A DNA stretch of 64,000 nt from Candidatus Nomurabacteria bacterium (GTDB lineage: Bacteria > Patescibacteriota > Minisyncoccia > Phycocordibacterales > SBAW01), in assembly GCA_943348815.1 (NCBI GenBank), contig CALQYT010000003.1, forward strand, positions 4,679-68,678, given 5' to 3'. How positions within the stretch are numbered: position 1 is the stretch's first letter; every line of letters starts with the position of its first letter. The notes under the pieces are model-generated. The model did no database searches. It worked only from the letters and a program-made list of their open reading frames with translations, and was not told the origin of the DNA. The translations under genes were made by a program, and so were the position numbers. Of this stretch, positions 14,528-61,015 are shown piece after piece.

Positions 14528-15145
14528 TTATGAATTACTCACCGACGACTGATACGCACCGACAAAGTCGGCCGTGACGATGTAGCGTTGAGACTTCGTG
14601 CCAAAGGAGTCGCACGTAACCAAGGTGAGGAACTTGCCCGTTGCAGGGAGTTCTACCACATCTTCGGTGGCATTGGCAAGCCTTACGCTAGTGACGCGGT
14701 AGCGATACTCCAAAGTACCCGAGTAGACGCTCACCACGTCCCCTGTTTTGAGATTTTGGATACCGTTGAAGGCTTTGAAGTTTTGGTTGTGGACAATAGG
14801 CAGGTAAGATGAGTGGCCAAATAACAGCACCGTGCCATCAACGCCCAGCTGCGCCGAGGTCGGATAGCGTACCGCGCCCTTAAGCAAGTCTTCGTCGAGC
14901 GCCTCGACATCGGTCGAGTCGGGGTTGGCGACGCTTACATCCAAACCAACTTTGGCTGCGACAACGCGCACCGGCAACTCGGCTACAAAGTTTTGAGTAT
15001 TAGTAACTTCGACACTCGTGTCGACAGGGGTGGAAGCGTGGTTGGAGATGGGGTCGGGCAGCAAGTCGAGCGCGCCAAATACGGCAAAAGCGAGCACAAA
15101 AAGTGCCACAAAGGTTACTGCAAAGCTCCAATACGTCTTTGCCAT
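14528..15145 (-). CDS. Sortase
   Basis: N-terminal TM, LLFGHSS (catalytic His), LTLVTC (catalytic Cys), downstream Arg (SQRYIV). Confidence 0.92.
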   Translation of the reverse strand: MAKTYWSFAVTFVALFVLAFAVFGALDLLPDPISNHASTPVDTSVEVTNTQNFVAELPVRVVAAKVGLDVSVANPDSTDVEALDEDLLKGAVRYPTSAQLGVDGTVLLFGHSSYLPIVHNQNFKAFNGIQNLKTGDVVSVYSGTLEYRYRVTSVRLANATEDVVELPATGKFLTLVTCDSFGTKSQRYIVTADFVGAYQSSVSNS

Positions 15146-15154
15146 GGTCGCTCT

Positions 15155-15213
15155 AGAGTACCACAGATTTAGTAGAGGGTCAACTTGCACACTTGACAAG
15201 TAATTGGTAGTAT
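15155..15213. promoter_or_regulatory. Divergent sigma70-type promoters for sortase and CARDB-domain gene
   Basis: Minus: TTGACC-17-TACTCT; plus: TTGCAC-17-TAGTAT. Confidence 0.55.
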
Positions 15214-44000: not shown

Positions 44001-46701
44001 TGGTAGTGCTTGGTGCATTAACACTATCGAGCATCAAATAAGAGGTCGGGCCAGCAAGTGCACTATGCCAGGCATACCAATCACCGGCAGCGTCGAGACG
44101 CTTTACGAGCACAAAATCGGGAGTGCTACCCAAACTGTGGGTGATGTTTCGGTTCGCCGTGTTGTTGCCACCGTAGCTGACAATATCGAATCCTGGAGTT
44201 ACTCCCTTTTTCCACATCCACGCAACGTAATTGCTGAACGGATCGTTGGTGTTACCTCCACCACCCGCACCTGCGGTAACCGTAAAACCGTCCGGATTAA
44301 ATGCCGAGAGATATCCGTTGCTGTCGTTCGTGGTCTCAACACTGGTCGAGTTGGTAAAGAGGCTCTTAGCGATACCACGGATTGAGTCGTAGAGATTGTT
44401 CCAATTGCTGTTGGTGCGATTTTTGATCCACACCAAGTCAGGCTGGAAGGCGAACCCGCCTACCGTAATAGGCGGCACCGCCGGAGGTCCGAGCGAAGTG
44501 TATGAAATTACGATCTTACCTTGCGCGCCGCCCGTGCCGCTACCCCCGCCCCAATTACCACCACTGCCACCATTGCCGTATCCCCCTCCGATACTCCCTG
44601 CGGCGGCGCCTCCTGCACCACCAGGAATACCCGCAGCGCCTCCACCGGCGGTACCAGAAGAAAGTGTTGTACCTACCGAGCCAGTACCGCCAGCACCACC
44701 AGCACTACTCGTATCACCCGAACACTCACCTCGCAATCCGCCCGTGGCACAAACATTATTTGAGCCGGCAGAACATGCGCCTACATAACTGGTTCCTCCA
44801 TCAGAGGGTCCATTGTTGCATGCCCCACCGGCGCCGGCGCCACCAACTTGTATAGCAACACTACTCCCGGCCGTTAGGCCGACGTTGCTTCTGCTTGCAT
44901 AACCGCCACCTCCGCCACCGCCGCCACCTCCGCCGGCCGCACCATTTCCACCACCACCACCACCGACAACCTTGATGGTATTAACAGAAGGATTCCAATC
45001 GGTGGGCACGATAAAGCAACTTCCTGAAGTAAACGTCAGGGTGACTACGGTGCCGACCGTAGAAGGACTAAAAGACTGGCACGCTGAGGGCGGGCCTGCA
45101 TTGCCCCACGTCGCTACATCAAAATAACTTTTCGGTTTTGCTATCGTTGGCGTCGCAAGATTGTCGGTTGAGATTGCTTTAAACCCGGTCGGCGGTTGAT
45201 ATTTAAAGTAACCGCCGTAGCTTGCCGTGTAGTCAGTAAGCCCGGTCTGGCCGCCTTGGCCAAAGTTGACGTACGTTTTGCCGTTGAAGCTCGCAAGGCC
45301 CGGGTACCCATTGGAAACGGTGCCTACCGAGCCGGTGCCGCTTGCGGGGACGGCGCTGTTTTGCCATACACCATTTTTAGAAAAATATACTTTGCCGCTG
45401 TCAGCGTCGTACGCTACGCCAATAATGTCAGTGTTAGTAAATGAACTAAGAGTGGTCAGCAAAGTATTGCCATTCGTGTATACCTGGCCGGTCGAGTAAT
45501 AACCGATACCGCTGTCGCCGTAGTGCCCCGGGTACGCCCCCTGACTAGAGCTGGGGAAAATAACGTTTTTAAAAATTCCAGGGATCGGATACCCGCTGCC
45601 GGTACCGCCGACGGTGTATTCCCAATACCACTTACCCGACGTAAGTTGCCAGCCCGCATCGGCTCCGTAGTTGCCACTTAACGACAAACCCGTATCAACC
45701 ACTGATCCTTTAGTATAACTAGCGGCATAGTAATACATCGGATTAAGGATTGGAAAACTATTAGTCGGTGTGTCAATCACTTGGTCCTCCACTTGCAGAC
45801 CATTGAGGGTTGCATTGGTACCGCCCGAGGCGTCGTTGCCCATATCTCCGAGGACACTGCCTTTAAATACCGAGCAGGAGTTGGCTACTATGCCGCTCGC
45901 CGACCACGTGAGGAGGCTCGTGCCGCCGTATTGTACATTTTGCGGTGTTGCGGTGATAGACATCGTGGCTGTAGAAACTCCTATCACTACCGTCTTATCG
46001 GGCTGTGAACCACTTAAACCTCCTCCGCAGTGCAAAGTATAAGTCGTCGTTTGAGTAGGATTGACGGTCATTTGACCGTAATAGGTCCCTGCCGGTATAG
46101 AGGGAAGTACTGCGCCCGTGCTTGCCGTAACCGTTATAGGACCCGAGGTAATCGGAAAACTGCCGGAATTGGGAGCGCCTGTGTTGTCATACACGAGGAC
46201 ATTTTGATAGGGCTGGCATGCCCAATCGAGCTGTACCGATGTACCTGAAAATACCAGGATGTTACTGCCTGCATTATTAACATTGGAAGAGACATACCAA
46301 GAGGTACAAAGGCTGGAACTATTTTGATTGCAGGTATAGACCGTGTTCGCATATTTCCCCGCGTTATCATTCCCCGGTTGAGTAACACTTAAAGCCGCTG
46401 TTTGAATGCTGTAATAGCAATTGGGGTAGGCACTGAAAGCATTAATCGTACAGTTCAGATACGACGGGTACGGTACCTGCGTGTTGTAATAACTTCCAAC
46501 CGCTGACTGCCAATACGGCACCGCGGCCACTTCTACCGCAGCAATTAAATGCACCCGTTCAAGCGCCACTCGTACCCAAGATGGCATTCCGGGCAGGCTA
46601 CCGGTAAGTGCCAGACCAATCAAAATAAGCAGCGCCGCGCCGGCACAAAGACCCGAAAGAGTCTTTAGTTTTGATTTAGAAAATTGGCGCAGTCGATCCA
46701 T
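41050..46701 (-). CDS. 1883-aa surface protein: N-terminal TM, Cys-paired beta repeats, SPRY, Gly-rich modules, phage-fibre-like repeats and LamG domain
   Basis: SGKWYWEY..DIIGVAYDADSGKVYFSKNGVW (SPRY); FQPDLVWIKNR; FGSYTGNGSTDGPFV.IGFKPRFVMIKR; WTWSGWVKRS..WIHLVVAVDT..RLYVDG (LamG); TWS..SC..YTL.C repeats. Confidence 0.88.
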   Translation of the reverse strand: MDRLRQFSKSKLKTLSGLCAGAALLILIGLALTGSLPGMPSWVRVALERVHLIAAVEVAAVPYWQSAVGSYYNTQVPYPSYLNCTINAFSAYPNCYYSIQTAALSVTQPGNDNAGKYANTVYTCNQNSSSLCTSWYVSSNVNNAGSNILVFSGTSVQLDWACQPYQNVLVYDNTGAPNSGSFPITSGPITVTASTGAVLPSIPAGTYYGQMTVNPTQTTTYTLHCGGGLSGSQPDKTVVIGVSTATMSITATPQNVQYGGTSLLTWSASGIVANSCSVFKGSVLGDMGNDASGGTNATLNGLQVEDQVIDTPTNSFPILNPMYYYAASYTKGSVVDTGLSLSGNYGADAGWQLTSGKWYWEYTVGGTGSGYPIPGIFKNVIFPSSSQGAYPGHYGDSGIGYYSTGQVYTNGNTLLTTLSSFTNTDIIGVAYDADSGKVYFSKNGVWQNSAVPASGTGSVGTVSNGYPGLASFNGKTYVNFGQGGQTGLTDYTASYGGYFKYQPPTGFKAISTDNLATPTIAKPKSYFDVATWGNAGPPSACQSFSPSTVGTVVTLTFTSGSCFIVPTDWNPSVNTIKVVGGGGGGNGAAGGGGGGGGGGGYASRSNVGLTAGSSVAIQVGGAGAGGACNNGPSDGGTSYVGACSAGSNNVCATGGLRGECSGDTSSAGGAGGTGSVGTTLSSGTAGGGAAGIPGGAGGAAAGSIGGGYGNGGSGGNWGGGSGTGGAQGKIVISYTSLGPPAVPPITVGGFAFQPDLVWIKNRTNSNWNNLYDSIRGIAKSLFTNSTSVETTNDSNGYLSAFNPDGFTVTAGAGGGGNTNDPFSNYVAWMWKKGVTPGFDIVSYGGNNTANRNITHSLGSTPDFVLVKRLDAAGDWYAWHSALAGPTSYLMLDSVNAPSTTNSPWGTGNFSSSQFMVTNNSTNNTNGGGVQTIFLTSGTSWTVPADWNSSNNKIEVIGGGGSGGGSGYGSGYPTGGGAGGAGGYASTSNVSLTPSSNIYFQVGSGGSAVSSTANGLAGTDTYLCSTSSNCGVGSSVVGVHGGAGGTWGSSGGGGGGAGGTVVIGTGSKGGNGGNGSTSGGTGGGGGAAGPSGAGNNGAVGVAGSGDAGFGGTGGAYNGSSGTAGTEFDSTHGSGGGGGAGNGSSGGTGGNYGAGGGGAGYGSGTASGSGRGGLIVITYTPATGASYIAYLFKAVPGFSKFGSYTGNGSTDGPFVNIGFKPRFVMIKRTDTSSINGWYIWDTAREPNTAYQGNARLYPNGATTEIGGNNPDLDILSNGFKLRSGGTDYNASGGTYIYSTFADIPFKYSAGATSTDGYKISYSGRFSAADSSSMLRTGIAGNRQKWTWSGWVKRSTLGSSQYLFTANGTQSGENTWLGIDFNASDQLNITTWATSLRTTNKIFRDPSAWIHLVVAVDTTQATANNRVRLYVDGTEVTSFATLNNPAQNALLGINQAVNHYVSTYNGSTYPFDGYMSDLYLVDGQQLTPSCFGEYDTNGYWRPKAYDSNTCGAYGPNGFHFDFSVPPPIWKQNNSLTTNATQGSTPAQGGTCTSSNCTYTTPALSSFTNLYTLQCTPTDMGVAVKISTTVKILPVLNIYGRNQSNASFSSSLDPLVTALVPKYTPANLTWTSLYTNNGSCSVTPDSSPTSVGINNSAAASPPYSTGNLTASTTYSLSCTAVAGGTYATTTRVAVVPTTCDDSISQTCDWSCKAGASGGAGSKVLPGGNGNPTINWCCPANLGDTGATITGIGAVARSGSQQVAGGSYTVSCNPTGSSKAVSIAAGAGQTFTPAELSNISIIASPTRLRKGSQTTISWTTGTPDLLLNLPQSSCAVSGPGLSDTTKQGSSNPLTINTASKYTFTCSDGVGGTYSTSTTVTLLPGFIER

Positions 46702-47711: not shown

Positions 47712-48602
47712 ATGCGATGGGTATTGGTAAGCGGGATCCTACTCCTCCTAGGAATTGGGGCGTTTTTCTTTGCAAAAACTCGCCCCGCGGCGGAAGAGCC
47801 TGGGTGGCGAGCCATGATCGAAAAGGCCGGGCCGGAAAAAGCATACGCACAGTTTGCCGAATCGGTGGCTGCAGAGCCCCCCGGCGAGCAACACACCGCC
47901 GCACACAACTTTGGCGATGCGCTTTACGAGGAAAAAGGGCTCGCCGGACTGTCCGCGTGTGATAGTCGTTTTGGATACGGCTGCTTCCATCAATTGGTTG
48001 GACGAGTTATTGCAGAGCATGGACTCGGGGCAATTGCAGAAATACAACATGTGGTCGGTACATCGAGCGACTCCAACCACGGCGTTGGCCACGGCATACT
48101 CGCCTACCTCGGATACACACTGCCCAAACTCAAACAAGCACTCGCCGTTTGCCCAAGTGGTGGCCCGGCGCCGTGGGATTGCTCGGGGGGTGTGTTTATG
48201 GAATACAACTTCCGTACCATGCTCGGAGAGGGGCCGCGACTACCGGGCAACAATCCGTACGCTCCCTGCGATGCGCTCGAGGGTGTTCAAAAAACAGCTT
48301 GCACTTTTTGGCTGCCCGAATGGTGGGACCGTACTACGTTTGGAGCCGCCGCGACCTCAAGCCAGTCGTTTGCAAACATTGGCGCATACTGCGACGGACT
48401 CCCCAAGGCAGTGCACGGTGCATGTTACGGAGGCACCGGGTACGCGGCTGCCGCTGCGACAGAACAAAATGCGGAAGTCTCGACGTATCTTTGTAACGCA
48501 AGTACAGCCAATACTGCCTATCGTACACTTTGCAATCACTGCGCGGCATATGTCTTTACTACCCGCGGCAAACGTCCAAGCTGCACTCTAAACGAGTTTT
48601 AA
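47712..48602 (+). CDS. Secreted His/Cys-rich repeat protein (paralogue 1)
   Basis: N-term TM; HTAAHNFG, GCFHQ, HGVGHG, CSGGVFME. Confidence 0.85.
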   Translation: MRWVLVSGILLLLGIGAFFFAKTRPAAEEPGWRAMIEKAGPEKAYAQFAESVAAEPPGEQHTAAHNFGDALYEEKGLAGLSACDSRFGYGCFHQLVGRVIAEHGLGAIAEIQHVVGTSSDSNHGVGHGILAYLGYTLPKLKQALAVCPSGGPAPWDCSGGVFMEYNFRTMLGEGPRLPGNNPYAPCDALEGVQKTACTFWLPEWWDRTTFGAAATSSQSFANIGAYCDGLPKAVHGACYGGTGYAAAAATEQNAEVSTYLCNASTANTAYRTLCNHCAAYVFTTRGKRPSCTLNEF

Positions 48603-49921: not shown

Positions 49922-50320
49922 ATGCGCATGGTAGCCGCCGCTTTGTATATTTTGGGGGGCACAATTGTGGGAGTAAGTATCGGATTGTGGTGTGCCAAAC
50001 CGCTCGCCTCCACTTATACTGACGATCAATTTCTACAAAAAAGAATCTCCCTAGACGACGCGCCGAGGTACGTATCTCTCACCGCGATTGTGGGGTCGAT
50101 CGACCGCAACGCACGCACCATTACCACACAGACAAAGGATCCTTATAGTAAAGAGCGTGTAGGGTTGGTAGTTGGGTACGACGCCAACACCACGGTATTC
50201 AATAACGGAGCCCAAAAATCAGCGGAGACGCTGCGCGCTGGCGACACCATCATTCTTACGGTGGCCCGGACCAGCGGCGTCCTGTATGCCTTTAGTATTG
50301 TTAAGCGCTCATATTTATAG
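49922..50320 (+). CDS. Membrane-anchored small beta-barrel (DUF5666-like) protein
   Basis: N-term TM; VGSIDRNARTITT..DPY..TTVF..LRAGDTI; TATACT 7 nt before ATG. Confidence 0.65.
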   Translation: MRMVAAALYILGGTIVGVSIGLWCAKPLASTYTDDQFLQKRISLDDAPRYVSLTAIVGSIDRNARTITTQTKDPYSKERVGLVVGYDANTTVFNNGAQKSAETLRAGDTIILTVARTSGVLYAFSIVKRSYL

Positions 50321-50322
50321 TC

Positions 50323-50763
50323 ATGCAGACGTTAAAATACGGACTCGGATTACTAGCGGGGGCAGGAGTCATATCTTTTGTTCTGTTCATGGCCTTCGAA
50401 AATTACTACACCTATATACGAGTGCAGGGACAACTGCATAGACTTGAGGCATCACTCTCAGTCGCCCGGATACTCACGTACGGTATTGTTGATTCTGTCG
50501 ATATATCAAAAAAAACACTCACCGTTCGTATGCCAGACCCGTATGAAGACGGGGCGCAACGACTGGTTGTGATATATCTGTTGCCGGAAACCTATATAGC
50601 CCGACAGACACTACTTGGTGACAAAAAGATGTATACCGGTCTCTCCCCCCAGACACCCACACCGCTTGCGGACATTGCCCCTGGTGAGCGAGTCGCCGTA
50701 TTTGTGCAGCAAAATAACGAGCGATTTGTGGCACTAATCGTACTAGTCGGCAATCCACTATGA
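50323..50763 (+). CDS. Membrane-anchored small beta-barrel protein, paralogue of the preceding gene
   Basis: N-term TM; GIVDSVDISKKTLTV..DPY..ETYI..IAPGERVAV. Confidence 0.7.
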   Translation: MQTLKYGLGLLAGAGVISFVLFMAFENYYTYIRVQGQLHRLEASLSVARILTYGIVDSVDISKKTLTVRMPDPYEDGAQRLVVIYLLPETYIARQTLLGDKKMYTGLSPQTPTPLADIAPGERVAVFVQQNNERFVALIVLVGNPL

Positions 50764-51392
50764 GTGCTCATATCCTACCGGCCTTTGACTCTCCCCAAGC
50801 GCTCAAACCGTTCTTTCCCACAGAAAAAGAGCCTTGGGAAACACTGCCCTTGTTTGTCAAGAAAAAAAACGTCCAATTACTGTTGGGCGTCTTTCCTCTG
50901 TGGACACAGCTTGAGCGTTCTTTTTCTCGTACCGTTCGAACGCTTGGTGTGCCGGTGCTGTCCCTACCCTCGGAACGTATAGCGCTCGTTCCTACACTTG
51001 TCCGCGACCTGCCTGTAGGAAAAATAGTGGCGACAAGCCGCGACCTCCCCGCACTCGAGCGTATGAGTAGCACTCATGCCCCTATGCGCGATCTTATATT
51101 CCACATCGTCCTTACTCCCGAGGAACGTCCAATAATCTCGAGTCTCCAGATTGTTTTTGAAGTCCATCTTGTGCCCGGTGCGGTTGGGCTTTTCCAGTGC
51201 GAAGCACTCGCGAGCAAAAAAGAACTTCTGTTTCACCTGAGTAGCCGTTTTTACTGGGAGTTTGAGGACCAAACACTACTAGTTACCGATGACGCTCGTA
51301 CGGCTCGGTTTTCCCAAGCCCCGCTGCCTCTCCATTACAAAAAAAGAAACGCTCCGTGTCCGTGTGGACACCAGGTAGTCTTGCTTATATGA
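50760..51392 (+). CDS. Degenerate/truncated PaaK-like (ANL) protein
   Basis: FQC...FHL..RFYWE...LLVT...PCPCG resembles the PaaK central region, but TSGTTG, YG.xE and TGD are absent; ATGA-coupled on both sides. Confidence 0.6.
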   Translation: MSAHILPAFDSPQALKPFFPTEKEPWETLPLFVKKKNVQLLLGVFPLWTQLERSFSRTVRTLGVPVLSLPSERIALVPTLVRDLPVGKIVATSRDLPALERMSSTHAPMRDLIFHIVLTPEERPIISSLQIVFEVHLVPGAVGLFQCEALASKKELLFHLSSRFYWEFEDQTLLVTDDARTARFSQAPLPLHYKKRNAPCPCGHQVVLLI

Positions 51393-52588
51393 CGGAACTC
51401 GAAAAAGCTTGCACAGCCGCCGACAGAGCCCGGAGTAACCGCTGCTCCTCTTTTTATCGCGATCTCTATCAAGGATTGGCCCAACCTATTACTCCCGAGC
51501 AATGGACCCAAGTCCCCTTCCTTACTAAATCAGACATACTGCGAGTGCCTTTTATGCAGCGATTATTTGTCCCGTGGGAGAAGGTCGATACTATTGCACT
51601 TACGTCGGGGACTACGGGGAGCGGAGTATGCATACTGCCTCGACGGTTTTCTTTAGACTTGCCCTCGGATTTTCCGTATTACAAAGATCATCGGTTAATG
51701 ACCTTCTACTACTACTCCTATCGAATCCGTGCCGAATCAAAAACAATTTCTGGCGATCAGACTCGCTATGAGGCGAGCGCACAGCTTGCGGCACAAGCAG
51801 GCGTGGACGCACTCCACGGATCAATATCGCAATTGATAGCATTTGCTCCTCATGCAAAACGTGCGGGCCTCATTTCGAACATTCGCGCGCTATGTTCGAC
51901 CGGGGAGAGGATAAGCAAGCTCCAGCTCAATACCATACGCACTCTCTATCCTGGTGCCGAATTGCGCACGGTGTATGGTATGCAAGAAGTAAGTGTGGCC
52001 GGCTACTCTCCTCTCGTGCCACGGCCCGATCGCCCGCTCGCAGTAAAGCTCGTCCCCCACTATTATTTTGAAATACTGACTGAAGAAGGCCTTGTGGCGG
52101 ACAGCGGCACCGGCGAGCTGGTAGTGACCTCGCTTGAGGAAGATCCTTTCCCACTGATGCGCTATCGTACGGGCGATAAAGTCTCTGTGTTCGAAGACCG
52201 GGGCGAAAGACTTTTGGAGCCTCTCTCGCGGGTTGAAGAAGAACGGGTCCGTATCGGAGGAGGAGAGATAGTGTTGGACGAATTAGAGCGAGCTATTACT
52301 AAAACATTTGGAGAAAGTGTCGCCGACTTTGAGTGCACGGTAAAAGAGACTCTAGACGGAGAGACTATTCGTAGTGGCCTTGATCTGACCTTGTTTATAA
52401 AAAACAATCCTCCCCCGTGGTCGTCTACCGATGCAGCGCTCAAGCTCGCCACCGAGCTTCAGGCTAATCAACAGCGTACCTATCTTGACGGTATAGTGGC
52501 GGGACTCTATACCCCCATTACTTGCAGCTTCATGCTAGTGGGAGGCACACAGCTCCAAAAAAGGCGCCATCTAAGGGACGGGCGATAA
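51389..52588 (+). CDS. Phenylacetate-CoA-ligase-like adenylate-forming enzyme
   Basis: SFYRDLY, VPFLTKSD, TSGTTG, STGE, VYGMQEV, GELVVTSL, PLMRYRTGD, SR..ERVRIGG, terminal K.R...D.R. Confidence 0.9.
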   Translation: MTELEKACTAADRARSNRCSSFYRDLYQGLAQPITPEQWTQVPFLTKSDILRVPFMQRLFVPWEKVDTIALTSGTTGSGVCILPRRFSLDLPSDFPYYKDHRLMTFYYYSYRIRAESKTISGDQTRYEASAQLAAQAGVDALHGSISQLIAFAPHAKRAGLISNIRALCSTGERISKLQLNTIRTLYPGAELRTVYGMQEVSVAGYSPLVPRPDRPLAVKLVPHYYFEILTEEGLVADSGTGELVVTSLEEDPFPLMRYRTGDKVSVFEDRGERLLEPLSRVEEERVRIGGGEIVLDELERAITKTFGESVADFECTVKETLDGETIRSGLDLTLFIKNNPPPWSSTDAALKLATELQANQQRTYLDGIVAGLYTPITCSFMLVGGTQLQKRRHLRDGR

Positions 52589-52604
52589 ATGCTAGTATAT
52601 AGAT

Positions 52605-52805
52605 ATGGAGCTTACTAAAACACTTTCTCTTTTGCCTCTACTGGCGATCGCAAGTATGTTGTTGGTTGGCCGAATTATGTGGACTCCCGAACACGTTTCT
52701 CTCGCTCCTACCGCCCTTGCTCTTGCCGAACAGCCGGGACCGACATGCGATCTTCCCACTCAAGAGAGCACCATTCTTTTTGTCGGTTGCGGGGGGTTTT
52801 TCTGA
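52605..52805 (+). CDS. 66-aa peptide with hydrophobic N-terminus and C-terminal FVGCGGFF (candidate modified-peptide precursor)
   Basis: TAGTAT 6 nt before ATG; fills the gap exactly between the ligase and the next gene; signal/anchor helix. Confidence 0.7.
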   Translation: MELTKTLSLLPLLAIASMLLVGRIMWTPEHVSLAPTALALAEQPGPTCDLPTQESTILFVGCGGFF

Positions 52806-52808
52806 CCT

Positions 52809-53297
52809 ATGGCTCGCATCATAAAGCGATCTCAAAAAAACAAGAAGCCGCGGGTATTTAGCTTCCGTGTGGGAGACGGACACACCGCGAGCGAGCTTTT
52901 GCACGCCGGTCGTTACAACTGGATAGGCGACGTCGTGCGGGAGTTTACCGAATCAAAACAATTCAGAATAGACCCTGAGCCTAAAAAGATCGAGTTGGAG
53001 TTGGTTGAGTTAGACTACGACCCGACCACCACGCAGGTACTCAAAGAATTTAAAAAAAGAGGCCTGGTAGAGCCGACCGAGGAGGACGCCCTTCGATTTG
53101 GAAAAAAATATCCAGATCTCCAACACAAATTTCCTATTGTGTTTCTCAACGCTCACCACCCCTGGCTCGTCGATCGGGGCCTTCCTCGAGTCATTGTACT
53201 GCGACGCTTTTCAGGCGGACGTGGAATCGTAGGATACTGGCTGCAGAGTGGATGGTTTCGTCATTACCGTTTTGCCGGGCGTCGAATACACAAATAA
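52809..53297 (+). CDS. Hypothetical protein
   Basis: 162-aa ORF starting 3 nt after the peptide gene; RGL..P..EDALRFG..YPD.Q..FPIV.L...W...RF pattern. Confidence 0.7.
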   Translation: MARIIKRSQKNKKPRVFSFRVGDGHTASELLHAGRYNWIGDVVREFTESKQFRIDPEPKKIELELVELDYDPTTTQVLKEFKKRGLVEPTEEDALRFGKKYPDLQHKFPIVFLNAHHPWLVDRGLPRVIVLRRFSGGRGIVGYWLQSGWFRHYRFAGRRIHK

Positions 53298-53377: not shown

Positions 53378-54268
53378 ATGTGGAAGATTGTTTTGGGACT
53401 GTGTCTTGCCGTGGCAGGGGTAACGTCTGCCGCAGCAGACCCGTATCCAACCAGGCCCATTCGGATCATCGTACCGTATGGGCCGGGGGTTGCCCCCGAC
53501 GTCATCGTGCGGCTCTACGTCGACGTGATGAAAAGCTCGGGGATACACTTCTTCATCGAAAACCAGCCTCAGGCGTATGGAGTGGTGGGGACCCGCAATC
53601 TCTATCACGCCGAGCCGGACGGCTATACGATGGGAGTCATCTCTGCGAGCCTGCTGTACCCGCACAAAGAGTACGACGCTCAAAGGTTTGAGTACGTGAG
53701 CGTCGTATCGCGTGACAAAATGTTCCTGGTAGTACCAAGCGCCTCACCGGTGCGGACGCTCCAAGAACTTATCGCGAGCGTACCCAAAAACTACAGTGCC
53801 CCCAATCCTGGGGCACAGCGTTTTGCGGCGGAGTTTATGCGCGTAACCGGGCTCACTGCCGTACAACTTCCCTACCGAGGGGGTTCTGCGGCGGCGGTGC
53901 TCGACCTTAAGGTCGGACGCGTCGACTACACCTTCCTCTTCGGTTTCCAGGTCAAACAGGGAATCGATGAGGGAATCTTGCGCCCGCTTGCGGTGGTGGA
54001 CCCGGAACGAAGCTTGTTCATCCCGGAAGTACCAACAATGAACGAGGCGCTCCTCAAAGCCGGCCGGTCTACACTGCCGGTGCGCTATATACAAATGGGG
54101 GTGGTGTTTCCTCCGGGTACACCTCCGACGTACGTACAAAAACTGGCGCAACTTATTTGTACGGCATCGCGCGACGAGGAGTTGCGCGAAAGGCTCCGAA
54201 AAACGTGGGTGGAAGCGATCTGCTCTACCCCAAAGGAGTACCGCGCTTTTGCGTCTGGCTTCCAATGA
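53378..54268 (+). CDS. Bug/TctC-family tripartite tricarboxylate transporter substrate-binding protein
   Basis: Signal peptide, YPTRPIRIIVPYGPG..PD, IENQP, AEPDGYT, PYRGG, LRPLAV, PEVPTMNE, PPGTP. Confidence 0.9.
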   Translation: MWKIVLGLCLAVAGVTSAAADPYPTRPIRIIVPYGPGVAPDVIVRLYVDVMKSSGIHFFIENQPQAYGVVGTRNLYHAEPDGYTMGVISASLLYPHKEYDAQRFEYVSVVSRDKMFLVVPSASPVRTLQELIASVPKNYSAPNPGAQRFAAEFMRVTGLTAVQLPYRGGSAAAVLDLKVGRVDYTFLFGFQVKQGIDEGILRPLAVVDPERSLFIPEVPTMNEALLKAGRSTLPVRYIQMGVVFPPGTPPTYVQKLAQLICTASRDEELRERLRKTWVEAICSTPKEYRAFASGFQ

Positions 54269-54335: not shown

Positions 54336-55895
54336 ATGCGTACGATTTTCTATACGGCCACGCTTGGTTTTATTGCTTTGGCAGCCTGGCTTATTTTTAA
54401 CAAACAACACGCAGCTGCTTTTTTTTCAGATGTCTTGGAAGCACAGCGTATCTCGGAGACTGTCTCCGTGGGAGGTAGTCCGTACCAAGTGAAAGACGGC
54501 AATGTGTGGCAAAAAGACCGAGTCATTACCGGAGAAGAAGCACTCCCCATTCTTAAACTTACCTACGCGCTCACGCTCGCAAAGCGACACCCTCTTTTTT
54601 CGCTTGAAGGCAGCGACCCATGGGTGCTTGCCACCGCCACCGAAATGCTTGCCCGCGTCCAAGAAGGATACGTCGAGCTCCAATCGACGGCAGCGGAGCA
54701 GGCCTTAGTCCGCAATCTATATCCTATTAATTTTTTGAGCAACGAAGCTCAGACAGAAATTGCCCGCCGCGCCTTCATAGAGTCCCCATCGGACCGAACA
54801 TACCAACGGTACGACGCATCACTCACCCGGACACTCGTGGCGTATAAAAAAGATTTGTCCGTATTTCGAACTGCCTTTACCAAAGCGGTACCTTCCTTGC
54901 ACCGATCTTACTTCACTCTCGAGGGCATCACCGGAACGAGCAGCGCAATCGCATCACTCGATAGTTTGGCCTTGGGTGCACAAAAAACTGCTGCTCTACT
55001 CGATCGACGGACACAATGTCTACGAGACGCAACGTATCTATGTGACTCTCAAGATATACAACTCCCGCAACTGTATGCCCCCGAATCCGCCGCGGTGTCC
55101 AGCAATGCTCCACCCGCAGTGAGTTCTGTCGTTAATGAATATAAGCTTCAACGAACGAGAACATCTCCTGCTATAATCGTGGCCCTCGCACAGAGCGACT
55201 GCGCGCGCGGCCTTGCCGCGCCATATTATTTTGCAGTATATGAGGAGCGACCTTTGCGGTTGAGCGCCATCGATTTTATTAATGACATTCTTTTTCTTCC
55301 GATACGCGATGGGGGAGAAGATTCACTTTTCCATTATTTTATGAGTCGAGGAGCATCCTACTTTCCTCTCGTGCCTACGGCTCCCTACCAGTGTCCATCA
55401 GCGGGAAGCGACTTTAGTCGTATCTACGCGACCCTACAGGTCGCACGCACTCTAGGAAAACAGCCGGGGGTATTATCGGAAGATGACGTTATATCCTCGT
55501 TCAAAACAGCCTTAGACCACGCGGAGACAAACGGCGGTACGCAAAAAGACACGCTCACGGCACTTACTCTGATGCTCCACGACAAAAGTGCTGGGCTAGA
55601 TTGGTTGGTAGAAGAGATAGCGCGCTTTGGGGAAACCAACTTGCGAATGAAGCAGGGCGGTGTACCTATAGCGACAGCTCCGGACTTTTTGTTTCTTGCT
55701 GAAAGTAGTTTCTTTTCTCTGTTTCAGGGGTATAACCTTTCGGTAGGTCAAGGGGTTGGGGTATCTCCCGCGACCGCCGACCCACTCAGACAATACCAAA
55801 AAAACATACACTCGTGGCTCAAAGCGTCGGACGCCACCCGTGATGAAATGAACGTGAGTTTGCGTTTATTTGTTTCGATACATAAACAAATATAA
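54336..55895 (+). CDS. Membrane-anchored hypothetical protein
   Basis: N-terminal TM, 519 aa, TAGAGT 6 nt before ATG. Confidence 0.75.
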   Translation: MRTIFYTATLGFIALAAWLIFNKQHAAAFFSDVLEAQRISETVSVGGSPYQVKDGNVWQKDRVITGEEALPILKLTYALTLAKRHPLFSLEGSDPWVLATATEMLARVQEGYVELQSTAAEQALVRNLYPINFLSNEAQTEIARRAFIESPSDRTYQRYDASLTRTLVAYKKDLSVFRTAFTKAVPSLHRSYFTLEGITGTSSAIASLDSLALGAQKTAALLDRRTQCLRDATYLCDSQDIQLPQLYAPESAAVSSNAPPAVSSVVNEYKLQRTRTSPAIIVALAQSDCARGLAAPYYFAVYEERPLRLSAIDFINDILFLPIRDGGEDSLFHYFMSRGASYFPLVPTAPYQCPSAGSDFSRIYATLQVARTLGKQPGVLSEDDVISSFKTALDHAETNGGTQKDTLTALTLMLHDKSAGLDWLVEEIARFGETNLRMKQGGVPIATAPDFLFLAESSFFSLFQGYNLSVGQGVGVSPATADPLRQYQKNIHSWLKASDATRDEMNVSLRLFVSIHKQI

Positions 55896-56372
55896 TACGA
55901 AAGCGCCAAGCAATGCTCCCAAGAGCCCACTTGCGATTACAAACAGGTACGCAAGCGGAACCGTTTGAGATACTGTAAAAGGAAAAACAGCGGCAGCAAT
56001 CTCGTCTCCGGTAACGGTTCTGAAACTCACCTGAAGCGAATACGATCCTCCTTGTTCAAAAGTATAGAGCAACGTGGTGGGCCCGAGCGGTTGGCGTCGG
56101 ATACCTGTTGCAAGTAGAGTATTTTTGTCCTGCGAAACGACGCGTGTCCATACCTCGTCAAATTTGGCCGGCTTTGTTTTAACGGTATCACTCCAGAGAC
56201 TAAAATCGAACCGCGCGCTTTGTCCCGCTGTAATACTGATTGGATCGTACCCAACATCAATGAAGTAGGTAGTACCTACTGGCTGCTCCCACGAAGCGCC
56301 AGTGCTATGAGCACTCACATACAAAGGAGCGCACAAAAGAGCAGCTGCAACGAGAGAGAAAATTATATTCAT
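55866..56372 (-). CDS. Secreted beta-sandwich protein with predicted N-terminal His and C-terminal TM
   Basis: Signal ..YVSA|HSTG, IDVGYDP, GSYSLQVSF, C-terminal TM; ATGA overlap with the upstream gene. Confidence 0.75.
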   Translation of the reverse strand: MNIIFSLVAAALLCAPLYVSAHSTGASWEQPVGTTYFIDVGYDPISITAGQSARFDFSLWSDTVKTKPAKFDEVWTRVVSQDKNTLLATGIRRQPLGPTTLLYTFEQGGSYSLQVSFRTVTGDEIAAAVFPFTVSQTVPLAYLFVIASGLLGALLGAFVLYLFMYRNK

Positions 56373-57526
56373 AAACTTGACCATACGGCCCAGGCTGCTT
56401 CGCACGACTGGGTAGCCAACGGAGCCAGCACACACGAAGTTTGGATTTTTTCCTTAGACCAAAAGTCGGCCAGTTGTTGAAACGCCGCTTCAAAACAGTG
56501 TGTGTGCCACTCGTCCGGCAGCACCTTGCTCGAGCAAAAGGCGTACGCACCTTTTTGTTTATCGTCCGGTGTCCCTGCTTGTACGAGCCCACTTACGTAG
56601 GAACCTAAGCAATATTCTTGCAAGTCGGGGGCAAGCCCCAAACAGGCCGGGACCGCCTGGGCTGCAGTATTGAGCTGCCGCGCAAACATAGCTGCAAAGG
56701 TAGAGATTGTTCGCTGCAGATACTTGCTCGGTGTGTAGCGATACGCCAAATCAATTGCCTCTTGTAGTGTTTTGTCCGGAGTGAGGTTAAACACCACCGA
56801 AGCTAAGTTGGCGTAACACTCCTCCGGCACGCCGTCTGCGCCCAACTCTCTACAGATTTTAAAAGGGTCTTGTTTATCTATCTTTTTTGCATAGTTTTCA
56901 TCATACGAAATGCCGTTGTATGCGCCGCCAGCACATTTAACGAAATCCTCGTCGGTCTCCGCCGCCTGACGACACAAAGAAAGAGTCTGCTGCACTATTG
57001 CCACTGGGTCGCTCCACTCCCGGACGTCGTGGTGTATCACCGAACCATGTCCTACGCCGTGGAAGCATGCAGCACGGGAATAACTTTTTTGTCCGTTGGA
57101 GTCGTCACCTTGCATGGTGGTGCAAAACTCGCCTATCTCCTTGCCTACCTCTTTGCGGTTGCCTGACTCAAATAAAAATTCAGTGACAAATCCGTGGAAG
57201 AAACCAAAATCACAGACCTGCATATCGGGTGTAAAGGAGAGCCTCTCGCCTGCTTTAAACGATGTATAGGCTCGCTCCCCCACTTGGTGCGCAAAGGCGT
57301 GGCACATCTGTATAAAATCAGGCGACTGTTTCGAAAATATTTGGAGCTGTTGCAGAGCTTGAGGTATCTTATCTTCGACAAGCAGCTCCGAGACGGCAGA
57401 GTTCCAACATTGATACTTTGCGGAGAGACTTCCGCTGCACGTAACACTCCCTTGGGAAGCAAACACCCACCCACCCAACCCAACCCCCACTAACATAACC
57501 GGGACCATCCAAAACACTTTCTTCAT
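56369..57526 (-). CDS. Secreted His/Cys-rich repeat protein (paralogue 2)
   Basis: CHAFAHQVG, CDFGFFHG, CFHGVGHG, CAGGAYN. Confidence 0.85.
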   Translation of the reverse strand: MKKVFWMVPVMLVGVGLGGWVFASQGSVTCSGSLSAKYQCWNSAVSELLVEDKIPQALQQLQIFSKQSPDFIQMCHAFAHQVGERAYTSFKAGERLSFTPDMQVCDFGFFHGFVTEFLFESGNRKEVGKEIGEFCTTMQGDDSNGQKSYSRAACFHGVGHGSVIHHDVREWSDPVAIVQQTLSLCRQAAETDEDFVKCAGGAYNGISYDENYAKKIDKQDPFKICRELGADGVPEECYANLASVVFNLTPDKTLQEAIDLAYRYTPSKYLQRTISTFAAMFARQLNTAAQAVPACLGLAPDLQEYCLGSYVSGLVQAGTPDDKQKGAYAFCSSKVLPDEWHTHCFEAAFQQLADFWSKEKIQTSCVLAPLATQSCEAAWAVWSSL

Positions 57527-57540
57527 CTCTACACTATATC

Positions 57541-58695
57541 TCAACATGACGGTTGATACTGGGCCGGAAGCAACCTACAGAAGCCTCCTCGACCCTGCGC
57601 ATCTCCAAACAACTGTCGTGCGTCGCGCGCCAAACCACTGTAACATTCTTGGGCGACGCTTCCCTGCGCTCGGGCACAAAAAGAAACCGCCTCTGCTGCT
57701 GCCGATCGACTCTCCTCGACTATTGCCTGCGCGCTGCCTTCATAACACATCCCTTGCCAAGCCACAGGAAAATTATCACACGCATGCTGTGCCTCTGTTG
57801 CATCACCAAGTGACAGGCGACCGATAATCGCAGAGATGCCCCGCCAGCAGTACTCCTCTTCTTGCGCATTAGGATAGCCCGAGCAGTACGCCTGCACGCC
57901 TATACCACGCAGCAACTCTTCGCGGAAGAGCGGCCAGCTTTCTTCCCTGCACGAGCCGATATACTCAGGATCTTTAAACGTCGCACAAAACTGCCGCACC
58001 GTTGTTTTGGTCGGTTTTGTTTTCATCCGAGCAATCAACTGATAGTCATCGGGCTCAAGCGGTTGATAAATTTGCATAAACACGCCTTGGATACAGACCC
58101 GCTGCGCGTCTTTAGGAAGGGTCCGGCGGCACAAATCGAGCGCCTGCGGCAAATTGGCATCGGTAATAAAGTCGTATAAGTGCCCCATGCCGTGCTCGCA
58201 CACCGCTTGGTCAAAGGGTGTGGGCTGCCACCCTGCGTGCGGTTTGCAGGCGAGAGAGAAATCAGGGATTAGTTTTTCTATGGTGGCCACATCCAGCACT
58301 TCGGAGCGGAAGCGTCCGCCCACCACACCATGCAGGTACCCGTTCGAACAAAGACTGTCGGGCGGATTATACGCTAAATCATCGAGCCATCTTGTAGGAT
58401 CTTCGGCCACTACCCGCTCGCCTATTTTGTGCCCAAGCACATGACAAAATTGATAGCTCGGATCTTGCGCACGCAACGCTCGTACCACGTCAAAAAGCTG
58501 CGCCACCCCGTGCTGTGGGTATAGTTGTGGCACCAACGATTCGTAACACACCTCATGTGTCTTTTCTTTGGCACATTGCGCGGCAAACCCGGCAGCGACC
58601 GCGCGCGCGTCAAACGCGCTTGCCTTGAGAATGGAGAGGGTTGCTCCACCGCATAATATAAGTATCAAGGCGAGGACGGCAATTTTTAGACGCAT
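57541..58695 (-). CDS. Secreted His/Cys-rich repeat protein (paralogue 3)
   Basis: CHVLGHKIG, CSNGYLHG, CEHGMGH, CIQGVFMQ. Confidence 0.87.
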   Translation of the reverse strand: MRLKIAVLALILILCGGATLSILKASAFDARAVAAGFAAQCAKEKTHEVCYESLVPQLYPQHGVAQLFDVVRALRAQDPSYQFCHVLGHKIGERVVAEDPTRWLDDLAYNPPDSLCSNGYLHGVVGGRFRSEVLDVATIEKLIPDFSLACKPHAGWQPTPFDQAVCEHGMGHLYDFITDANLPQALDLCRRTLPKDAQRVCIQGVFMQIYQPLEPDDYQLIARMKTKPTKTTVRQFCATFKDPEYIGSCREESWPLFREELLRGIGVQAYCSGYPNAQEEEYCWRGISAIIGRLSLGDATEAQHACDNFPVAWQGMCYEGSAQAIVEESRSAAAEAVSFCARAQGSVAQECYSGLARDARQLFGDAQGRGGFCRLLPAQYQPSC

Positions 58696-59837
58696 AGATT
58701 TTGTTTATACCGATCGGGAACACTGGTGCATACCTCTCGCAAACCCACGCTACCATAAAACTGTTTTGTCGCTGAGAGAAGCGTGCTATAGCAGGCGGGT
58801 AGCAGGCTCGCTTGTATATCGGGCGAGCCGCACAGCAGCAGCATGTCGGTATACTCCGCCCCGGGAGTGCCAAACTCTTGTATACCTACAACTACTCCCG
58901 TGATACAAGCATCGGCATCATGGGTAAGAGCGCTGCAGACACCCGAAACTTCTTTCGGTGAGACGATCATTTTTCTACCGCGCGCAGTACTGAAGTACGT
59001 CCCCGCAACACCGCGCACCGCCAACTCTCGATAGTGCGGGTCGGAAATCTCTTCGGTAAATGCTATCGCCTTGCCGAAGTGGTAGTTGGCCGCAAAAGTG
59101 GCGAGCGTATTCATTTGATCGTAACAGGCATCTTTTTCGGTCGTAGTAAAGTTTGGCGAACCACAGAGACTAAAGGGCTCTCCACCTATAGTGAGCTGGT
59201 ACTTAGCATCGCGATACATAAGCGCAACTGCATTAAACACACCCGAGGCGCAGCGGTAGGCGTGGTCTGTGTTCCCACCTGCGACTTCTTTGCATAAAGC
59301 GAGCCCAGGTGCGGCAATCTTTTGCGCGTCGCCCCACACTCTAGGGTCGGTGCCATCGGTCACTCCATGTCCAACACCGTGATAACAGGCGCCCTCAGCG
59401 TAGCCTGGTGGGTTTGGCACGACCGTACCTGCGTAGCTACAAAATGCGCGCGCCTCGTCAAAATTATTATTTTCATAGATAAGCTCCTCCATAAACCCGT
59501 GATAAAAGCCGTACCCGCAATAGCTTGTTTTATCACTGAGTTCTACCCTGCCGGTGGCATGAAATTCTTTATACGCCTCTTTGCCAAGTTCGTGCGTCTC
59601 GGCGTGACACGTTGCCAAATAACCCGGGTCGGCGTTGTACGCCTCGGCGAGCAGATCGAATGCCGCGCTGAGCCCATGGGTTTTTAGTGTTGCGTCGATG
59701 GCTTTGTTGTAACAATTGTTCTTGTCTTGTACGTCTTGTTGGCATACCAAAAGTGGGTCGGCACGCATGTGCCACGCATACACGGCTCCTCCAACCACCA
59801 AAATACACCCTGCCGTAATAAAAATTATTTTTTGCAC
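58686..59837 (-). CDS. Secreted His/Cys-rich repeat protein (paralogue 4)
   Basis: CHAETHELG, CGYGFYHG, CYHGVGHG, CASGVFN. Confidence 0.87.
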   Translation of the reverse strand: MQKIIFITAGCILVVGGAVYAWHMRADPLLVCQQDVQDKNNCYNKAIDATLKTHGLSAAFDLLAEAYNADPGYLATCHAETHELGKEAYKEFHATGRVELSDKTSYCGYGFYHGFMEELIYENNNFDEARAFCSYAGTVVPNPPGYAEGACYHGVGHGVTDGTDPRVWGDAQKIAAPGLALCKEVAGGNTDHAYRCASGVFNAVALMYRDAKYQLTIGGEPFSLCGSPNFTTTEKDACYDQMNTLATFAANYHFGKAIAFTEEISDPHYRELAVRGVAGTYFSTARGRKMIVSPKEVSGVCSALTHDADACITGVVVGIQEFGTPGAEYTDMLLLCGSPDIQASLLPACYSTLLSATKQFYGSVGLREVCTSVPDRYKQNLCV

Positions 59838-61015
59838 GTCGGTTGATAGTAAGCGGGCAAAAGAACGCAGACCTCTGTGCGCCCAGGCAGATATTGCGCG
59901 ATCGCATGGGTGAGCTCATCCCAACAGGCACTTTGTGAGCCAGTCGGCGCGTCGGTACAAAAACGTACCGATGCCTGCGGATTGTTTTCTCCGCCCCAAA
60001 ATACCGATTGCAATGCTTCGCGGACGCACGCCTCTTGGCCCTCGTGAGTTTGTGCGAGCGTGCACCACTGTGCCGCCCGTGTGTATTCCTCGTCACCGAA
60101 CTGGTCGACGTGCCGTATATCCCGTGCGCCTGCGATCGTCACGAACTCCTTACCAAAACCGCCATAGCACGCGCGGCGTAATTCCGGGCGCCCTGCAGGC
60201 ACTGCATCGCAAAATCCAAATGCTTTAGGGAACGTGGCTGGATCGGGCGACGTAAGTTCTGCACCCGCTTGGGCAAAGAGCTCGGGCGTCAAATACTCAA
60301 AACAAAATGTTTTTGCACTATCGGGGATCAAGGACCCCAAACAGAGCGCCGTCGGATCGTGCGGGTTAAGATACTTTTCTCGCGCAACGACCCACGCACC
60401 GTGGTCGTGCCCGCCGCCGCCCATGAGTTCCATCACTGCGCCGCCGACGCACTGTGTATATTGTTCGTCGTTGTATTGTGACGTCCCCATGCGCTTGCAA
60501 AAAGAGACCGTCTTTTGTAAGTCGTATCCGAAGTATGCAAACACTCCGTGTCCTAAACCGTGGTAACACATGGTGTACGCACCCAAACCGCCGGGGGCCT
60601 GGCGACAAGCATCGTCTATTTTTTTGAGCGTTGCGTCGCTCGTACCAAATTCGTTGAGTGCGCCTATCACCACCGCGTGTGAGCAGGCGTTACGGAAATC
60701 TTGCGTGCAGTAGGCTATCCCGCCCATACCCTGCTGTTTGTACAACTCATCCCCCACGGCGTGGCCGAGCAAGTGCAAGTCGGTATTAGACGGGAGGTTG
60801 GCGATTTTCAAAACAGCAAAAGCATATACGGCGCCCTTGTCCTTAGCGAGGGCAACAAAACGATCCGATAACTCTTTAAAGCTTTCAACATTCTTACCTA
60901 TACTCTGTGCCTCGGCATACGGCAGCGGATGCGAGCGCCCCAAAAGCATCAACACACCAACCGTAAGCACCGCGGCGGCTATAAGAATTTTTTTTATCCG
61001 CGGCGTCTCAACCAC
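59825..61015 (-). CDS. Secreted His/Cys-rich repeat protein (paralogue 5)
   Basis: LHLLGHAVG, ACSHA, CYHGLGHG, CVGGAVME. Confidence 0.87.
   Translation of the reverse strand: MVETPRIKKILIAAAVLTVGVLMLLGRSHPLPYAEAQSIGKNVESFKELSDRFVALAKDKGAVYAFAVLKIANLPSNTDLHLLGHAVGDELYKQQGMGGIAYCTQDFRNACSHAVVIGALNEFGTSDATLKKIDDACRQAPGGLGAYTMCYHGLGHGVFAYFGYDLQKTVSFCKRMGTSQYNDEQYTQCVGGAVMELMGGGGHDHGAWVVAREKYLNPHDPTALCLGSLIPDSAKTFCFEYLTPELFAQAGAELTSPDPATFPKAFGFCDAVPAGRPELRRACYGGFGKEFVTIAGARDIRHVDQFGDEEYTRAAQWCTLAQTHEGQEACVREALQSVFWGGENNPQASVRFCTDAPTGSQSACWDELTHAIAQYLPGRTEVCVLLPAYYQPTCKK

Follow-up and report, generated by a model that had tools for sequence, protein, structure and literature searches.

A cysteine-tailed membrane microprotein that travels with a PaaK-like ligase in Patescibacteria: a candidate acyl shuttle

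In Agr systems a short membrane-targeted precursor, AgrD, carries ahead of a cleaved tail the motif that is closed into a thiolactone, with a Cys five residues from the ring end and two hydrophobic last residues. The Dlt system, in which we take DltA to be the ANL ligase, is a second point of reference, and DltA is also a distant match of the enzyme described here. The membrane microprotein DltX is described as carrying an acyl group on a C-terminal motif, FXYXXF, to an outer enzyme (PMC12148441), whilst in the photoactive yellow protein (PYP) operon a tyrosine ammonia-lyase (TAL) and a p-coumaroyl-coenzyme A (CoA) ligase yield an aryl thioester that ends on a protein Cys, Cys69 (PMC12826048), a route whose first steps are shared by flexirubin synthesis (FlxA, FlxY; PMC12826048, PMC3992019). 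Among peptides made on ribosomes and modified after translation (RiPPs), GRC peptides acquire an ATP-dependent thiolactone through GrcB without AgrB (PMC12250964), and in nosiheptide synthesis NosI activates an aryl acid bound for the RiPP (PMC5585349); NatL2, a PaaK-type enzyme, works without CoA (PMC7204872). Here we analyse a 64,000-nucleotide stretch of a Candidatus Nomurabacteria bacterium genome (contig CALQYT010000003.1, positions 4,679 to 68,678; "the window" denotes this whole stretch), in which a PaaK-like ligase stands directly before a 66-residue membrane microprotein ending in a Cys-containing tail. Tests of membership in Agr, Dlt, PYP, GRC and PaaK catabolism all fail for this locus; a module of ligase, microprotein and outer-face partner is conserved.

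An earlier note on this DNA had proposed that the enzyme adenylates the C-terminal Phe of the microprotein and closes it onto the microprotein's own Cys. The tightly coupled gene run on which that proposal rested is real: every open reading frame (ORF) named between 49922 and 53297 is present on the + strand, with overlaps or gaps of at most 16 nt throughout (in order 2, -4, -4, 16 and 3 nt), but two genes just downstream, for a TctC protein and a 519-residue partner, had been overlooked. The features on which the argument turns are as follows (module types A and B are defined below).

50760..51392, + strand: truncated, motif-less copy of the ligase N-terminal domain, 210 aa; accessory, type A only
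51389..52588, + strand: PaaK-like ANL adenylating enzyme, 399 aa from its ATG, of a Patescibacteria-centred clade; module core
52605..52805, + strand: membrane microprotein, 66 aa, with Cys at -5 and a second Cys at -19; module core
53378..54268, + strand: TctC/Bug-family carboxylate-binding protein (Pfam TctC, E 6.7e-34)
54336..55895, + strand: single-pass protein, 519 aa, predicted to lie on the outer face; conserved partner in type A modules

The microprotein, which ends LFVGCGGFF-stop, belongs to a real, conserved family and is not a chance ORF. Searched on its own, the sequence retrieved nothing beyond itself and two fortuitous antisense-frame matches; a profile built from its relatives, with the window peptide left out, found a second peptide in the same genome, beside a second ligase (contig C9:5914-6108, E 2e-9). 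Members share a membrane segment followed by F-x-x-C-x-x-hydrophobic-hydrophobic-stop. The earlier note had asked for a conserved tail of this kind in short ORFs near ligase homologues, and the result was clear: ORFs of the peptide type (45-130 aa, a hydrophobic segment and a C-x-x-hydrophobic-hydrophobic end with one optional extra residue) occur at 29 of 35 loci within the ligase clade and at 4 of 134 PaaK-like loci outside it, i.e. 6.5 against 0.26 per 100 kb, under a pattern that had been widened (Ala/Thr, one extra residue) after the first matches had been seen. The sample comprised 169 ligase-bearing loci from L001-L184, 13 having been dropped as self, duplicate or short, and clade membership was set at >200 bits on a profile made from close relatives, with L023 included manually and the remainder forming the outgroup. 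Of the six clade loci without a call, two do carry a peptide, which the hydrophobicity filter rejected, and the rest are short or stop close to the ligase or partner. When the peptide profile was run across 301 genomes of the class, six matches were obtained, four of them true and all four in genomes with a clade ligase, these four genomes having themselves contributed to the profile; the matches in G185 and G218 were discarded as noise, being neither short C-terminal ORFs nor near a module gene.

The Cys is the sole invariant column in an alignment of 33 members, and small turn residues follow it. The Cys/FF terminus of the window peptide is conserved in its Cys, whereas the last residue varies: among 63 distinct peptides, 50 have Cys at -5 and end in F, L, Y or I, whilst 13 are one residue longer, with Cys at -6, and end in E (7), D (2), Q, R, K or F, i.e. 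all but one of the longer tails end in E, D, Q, R or K. One of these, at L240, extends by a single Asp beyond the tails at L237 and L239; the L240 ligase shares 73% identity with the ligases of both. A second Cys lies upstream in 30 of the 33 aligned peptides, at a spacing of 12 to 31 residues; three have only the invariant Cys and six have three. Charge bias places the tail outside in 21 of 33 and ties in 12, the window peptide among the ties, with none reversed. The peptide gene abuts that of the outer partner in 32 of 63 cases and that of the ligase or its dead copy in 29. One genome carries an identical peptide gene twice (L187:1498-1926 and L025:13468-13737), the second copy without a module gene within 19 kb, and at an archaeal locus (L036:8192-12351) a clade ligase is accompanied by a 145-aa ORF that ends in a longer C-G-G tail, together with genes for a HydE-like radical SAM protein and a member of the U32 peptidase family.

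The ligase was correctly read as an intact PaaK-like adenylating enzyme. It retains TSGTTG (P-loop), YGMQE (YG-x-x-E), RYRTGD and a C-terminal Lys391, all kept in at least 90% of 104 relatives, and shares fold and ANL motifs with its nearest solved relatives, which are PaaK, AjiA1 and NatL2-type enzymes (PDB 9s3l, 4r1l, 6wuq, 6siw, 2y4o). Its match to Pfam AMP-binding (E 2.7e-6) is below cut-off and every NCBIfam match is far below, the PaaK model TIGR02155 giving 33 of 646 bits. Phenylacetate catabolism was rejected on that score and on the lack of any paa gene among the 57 window ORFs scanned against Pfam, a lack that the earlier note had already remarked upon. Its relatives form 312 clusters at E<=1e-10 and are mostly labelled Patescibacteria, and its clade stands apart from ordinary PaaK-like loci in a quick tree; within the window's family the ligase profile has matches in 19 of 88 genomes, and within its order in 18 of 351. 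The 210-aa ORF upstream is, as had been claimed, a motif-less relative of the ligase (profile E 7e-6 among 5 proteins), with phmmer matches (E 2e-12 to 5e-4) to similar dead copies at five other loci and one near-duplicate.

To define the modules, neighbours were clustered in 37 loci and loci from the order and family were then added, giving 70 distinct ligase genes (score >=180, >=360 aa, window and C9 included). In 43 of them a homologue of the 519-aa partner lies no more than 9 kb away (type A), and 20 have an Lnt-like acyltransferase nearby (type B); none has both and seven have neither. The peptide is found near 40 of 43 type A, 17 of 20 type B and 2 of 7 remaining ligases, and where a type A or B ligase lacks it (six cases), the locus ends 313-2003 nt away. 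In the ligase tree, type B is a single clade (support 100, quick tree), whereas type A is not recovered as one. The genome of the window carries one module of each type, in the window and on contig C9, respectively. One ligase clade and one peptide family thus span two module types that coexist in a single genome and exchange both the outer partner and the supply gene, and this is what is new here; no description of the module was found in the literature, most subscription papers and supplements lying beyond the scope of that search.

The 519-aa partner of type A has no Pfam match. Its predicted structure (mean predicted local distance difference test score, pLDDT, 85; predicted template modelling score 0.88; 23 sequences) gave a best Z of 6.3 in fold comparison, no Foldseek match at E<=0.001 and no usable Atlas match; Tyr351 (31 of 31) and Cys353 (29 of 31) are conserved. 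Neighbour clustering brought out no conserved multi-pass membrane protein in type A modules. The dead ligase copy accompanies 29 of the 43 type A ligases and none of the 20 of type B; being confined to one module type, it is not required for precursor recognition in general, the role that the earlier note had suggested for it. The type B module of this genome (C9:2308-7992; L019, L191) comprises a ligase, an Lnt-like protein, a peptide ending C-S-S-I-L, a probable methyltransferase (273 aa, its family assigned from a like gene in L241) and three conserved uncharacterised genes; an ICMT/PEMT-like methyltransferase is found near 10 of 20 type B ligases. The Lnt-like partner shares with Lnt its LNT_N and CN_hydrolase domains and the Lys and Cys of what we take to be the Lys, Cys and Glu catalytic triad, but carries Phe in the position of the Glu (13 of 15 rows matched) and falls below the TIGR00546 cut-off (124 and 85 of 133 bits). 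Lgt, which makes the usual Lnt substrate, was not found in the genome (0.82 Mb, 96.7% complete, to which all genome-wide negatives below also refer).

The neighbours of the ligase hint at its substrate. Of the 20 type B ligases, 11 have a gene for an aromatic, TAL-like lyase nearby, and of the 43 type A ligases none, whereas TctC, NMT1 or DctP binding proteins accompany 18 of the type A ligases, none of type B and 2 of the 7 others, TctC being found also inside the modules of the two ligases nearest that of the window (L223 and L224, 43% and 39% identical) and of L243. In an unbiased scan of the family, 4 of 88 genomes had an aromatic lyase; a clade ligase is no more than 3 kb away in three of these, and a different PaaK-like protein adjoins the fourth. 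At L242:2-2926 an FlxA-like lyase is directly upstream of a PaaK-like ligase of another family, together with a response regulator, so lyases of this kind in the candidate phyla radiation (CPR) also serve other ligases. Five lyases score best on the FlxA-type TAL model (517-630 bits, cut-off 700; HutH 399-446), and all eight have the Gln motif assigned to tyrosine or phenylalanine ammonia-lyases as opposed to histidine ammonia-lyases, whilst sequence alone does not settle lyase specificity according to the same source (PMC3992019). CoaE and a CoaBC domain were not found in the genome, although a symbiont might take CoA from its host; nor were a carrier protein (ACP, PF00550; 11 of 14 control genomes match) or an MBOAT protein (PF03062; 3 of 14). 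AgrB (PF04647) was likewise not found, the 14 control genomes also giving no match over cut-off, so that this search has no positive control.

Set beside the described systems, the module would work most like the Dlt relay combined with the tyrosine-to-aryl-thioester route of PYP. With Dlt it shares an ANL ligase, a single-pass microprotein with its nucleophile in a short C-terminal motif and a single-pass outer-face partner (PMC12148441), but the candidate nucleophile is an invariant Cys and not the acylated Tyr, neither an MBOAT nor a carrier protein was found in the genome, and the searches run showed no relation of the partners to SGNH enzymes, the 519-aa protein having no clear fold match. 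The likeness to PYP and flexirubin lies in the pairing of TAL and ligase; both of these use CoA, however, and in PYP the acceptor is a soluble PAS domain, whereas here it would be a membrane microprotein, 66 aa in the window and without a Pfam match, and the lyase is found only in type B. The tail recalls Agr, yet its motif ends at the stop codon, it is accompanied by an ANL ligase and an outer-face protein, and neither AgrB nor a LytTR regulator was found in the genome. GrcB has an E1/ThiF fold, unlike the ANL enzyme of the window, the GRC ring joins Glu and Cys in the reverse sense to autoinducing peptides (AIPs) (PMC12250964), and ThiF was not found among the annotated module neighbours. 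NosI differs in its use of the carrier protein NosJ (PMC5585349).

We favour, with moderate confidence, a reading in which the ligase activates a small aryl acid and loads it on the peptide Cys, the peptide acting as an acyl shuttle that needs neither CoA nor a carrier protein. A small carboxylic acid, most likely aromatic, would be supplied to the module, in many type B loci as p-coumarate made from tyrosine by the ammonia-lyase and in many type A loci through capture by a solute-binding protein such as the TctC of the window. The ligase, to judge from its motifs and family, would adenylate the acid with ATP; the invariant tail Cys, standing in for CoA, would then accept the acyl group and form a thioester with it, and export with the tail outside would follow; and the outer-face partner, i.e. 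the 519-aa or the Lnt-like protein, would bind the tail and hand the acyl group to a surface acceptor, unless the acylated tail is itself the displayed product. What is observed is the gene set, its conservation and the exclusive pairings. The small aryl acid is suggested by the TAL-like gene and the Lnt-like acyltransferase of the sister module, and a CoA-free route by the failure to find CoaE, CoaBC or ACP in a nearly complete genome and by the CoA-independence of NatL2.

The strongest competitor, although we think it unlikely, is the thiolactone of the earlier note, in which the ligase adenylates the C-terminal carboxylate of the peptide and the Cys at -5 closes an AIP-like ring; the ring would serve as a signal or, as the partners make more likely, as an activated end opened by the outer partner onto a surface amine. 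That 50 of 63 peptides combine a hydrophobic last residue with the spacing of an exact five-residue ring speaks for this and against the shuttle. The small turn residues, the failure to find AgrB or CoA markers in the genome, the lack of a lyase in the window's own module and the precedent of GrcB, a ThiF-like enzyme, for adenylation-driven ring closure (PMC12250964, PMC11256085) also favour the ring. The last residue speaks against it: a pocket adenylating this residue would have to accept both Leu and Asp and two ring sizes, the L240 ligase being 73% identical to two with shorter tails, whereas a docking motif around a free thiol should tolerate such variation more easily, although trimming by a carboxypeptidase would rescue the ring. 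The thiolactone also leaves the lyase and the small-solute binding proteins unexplained, and the ICMT/PEMT-like methyltransferase of half the type B loci would, if it acts on the C-terminus, block ring closure. To our knowledge, adenylation at the end of a long peptide has no example among ANL enzymes, which we count against the ring, the search for one not having been exhaustive. Ring closure accordingly no longer appears the best mechanism, whereas the conserved Cys tail that travels with the ligase clade, in a genome where AgrB was not found, stands from the earlier proposal; under either model the Cys would carry a thioester. Its suggestion of signalling or mimicry of host quorum sensing fares worse and is rejected for want of a receptor or regulator link: no LytTR was found in the genome (controls match in 5 of 14), no sensor kinase lies among the conserved module neighbours, and the one HATPase_c_5 match is on another contig, with none in the window.

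It is also conceivable, but distinctly unlikely, that the ligase never touches the peptide and makes an aryl-CoA from host-derived CoA, or an acyl-lipid, from which the outer partner acylates the exported peptide as in the Dlt relay, on the tail Cys or on an upstream Cys bared by cleavage in the manner of Lnt and lipoproteins. Such a route, by which DltX is reported to work (PMC12148441), would resolve the inside/outside problem posed by an outward tail, and at L218 the peptide and the 519-aa partner occur without a ligase; it sits poorly with the lack of MBOAT, ACP and CoA markers in the genome, of a conserved multi-pass protein in type A, and with the frequent adjacency of peptide and ligase or dead copy (29 of 63). 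Least probable, in our estimation, is a peptide that serves unmodified, as a disulfide-looped subunit or ligand of the outer partner, whilst the ligase makes a separate small molecule, e.g. an NatL2-like ester or amide. The prevalence of a second Cys and the presence of the small-molecule ligases AjiA1 and NatL2-type among the nearest solved relatives agree with it, but the spacing of 12 to 31 residues, the three peptides with only the invariant Cys and the six with three, leaving one free, do not.

Several further observations weigh against the shuttle itself. The second Cys could tie up the invariant one as a disulfide; with no MBOAT channel found, a cytoplasmic ligase could reach an outside tail only before export; and the 519-aa partner shows no known transferase fold in the fold searches, whilst the Lnt-like partner has Phe in place of the catalytic Glu. 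Neither an aromatic lyase nor a TctA permease was found in the genome, and no supply gene is seen near 25 of the 43 type A and 9 of the 20 type B ligase genes. The lyase and Lnt evidence is confined to type B which, being a single clade, counts as one evolutionary event; identity between this genome's type B ligase (C9) and that of the window is only 21%. Finally, the first 37 loci, from which the partner profiles were made, are themselves among those counted, so that the partner counts are partly circular, and kin are not independent.

Taken singly, each step has a precedent elsewhere; if the shuttle is correct, a peptide Cys would stand in for CoA and carry an activated acyl group across the membrane, whereas a true thiolactone would mean cyclisation of a peptide end by an ANL enzyme, known so far for AgrB and ThiF-like enzymes, and either would be new enzymology. 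A more ambitious picture, which we offer tentatively and consider rather doubtful as a whole, would make the microprotein a disposable acyl carrier in Patescibacteria that lack CoA and carrier proteins, charged inside by an ANL ligase with a phenylpropanoid or other small acid, exported without MBOAT and discharged by a protein of new fold, or a rebuilt Lnt, onto the surface of symbiont or host. The module represents rare specialised chemistry in genomes without most biosynthesis, and it faces the cell surface, where symbionts meet hosts, with a large protein that has no fold match.

The remaining features of the run and its flanks are accessory or not kept with the module.

47712..48602, + strand: His/Cys-rich helical-repeat exported protein, one of five paralogues flanking the module
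49922..50320, + strand: small membrane-anchored barrel protein, 132 aa; co-transcribed, not a conserved module member; no Pfam match
50323..50763, + strand: DUF5666/CusF-like barrel, 146 aa, membrane-anchored; accessory (predicted structure)
52809..53297, + strand: 162-aa ORF; not conserved with the module; no Pfam or NCBIfam match
56369..61015, - strand: tandem run of four exported paralogues, His/Cys-rich with helical repeats, 383-396 aa each; accessory, type A

The two barrel genes, which the earlier note had listed in the gene run as membrane-anchored paralogues, are present and weakly alike (42% over 31 aa, E 1e-4), and the predicted structure of the 146-aa protein resembles DUF5666/CusF-type barrels (template modelling score about 0.55). 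As core parts, however, they and the 162-aa ORF were rejected, since they are not kept in other loci: no homologue of the 132-aa protein or of the 162-aa ORF was found in the fetched loci, and a similar barrel pair adjoins the ligase at 1 of 24 loci (L244) in the set drawn from order and family. The five His/Cys-rich paralogues, which have invariant His pairs and many Cys, are possibly metal-binding; such proteins accompany 20 of the 43 type A ligases and none of the 20 of type B, and their model (pLDDT 90) gave generic solenoid matches only, the best (Z 8.0) being to a designed repeat.

Type A modules are often accompanied by sulfatase-family genes and FG-GAP/ASPIC-UnbV proteins (L034, L046, L040, L029, L030, L200, L209); L028 carries an arylsulfotransferase, and L023 a UbiD decarboxylase and a sodium symporter. 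A complete type A module, with dead copy, ligase and a peptide with a cleavable-looking signal, and with its partner split by insertion elements, lies in a 10.4 Mb bin labelled Roseovarius (L051:9106-16754); it was not found in 60 relatives of that bin, one of which gave a weaker match without peptide or partner. Three loci labelled Gammaproteobacteria or Acidimicrobiales (L028, L043 and L049, in G643, G644 and G641) come from genomes of 0.7-1.2 Mb and hold CPR-like modules, so the labels may be wrong. Elsewhere in the window, a Sortase-domain gene (14531-15199; Pfam E 1.2e-18) is present in this CPR genome, and a 1382-aa protein (8125-12270) has a C-terminal glycosyltransferase family 9 domain as its sole Pfam match. 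A Gly-rich exported protein of 1883 aa with DUF7483 and SPRY domains (41050-46701) resembles phage or surface fibre proteins, and giant ORFs also flank the module in L025, L039, L077, L230 and L243.

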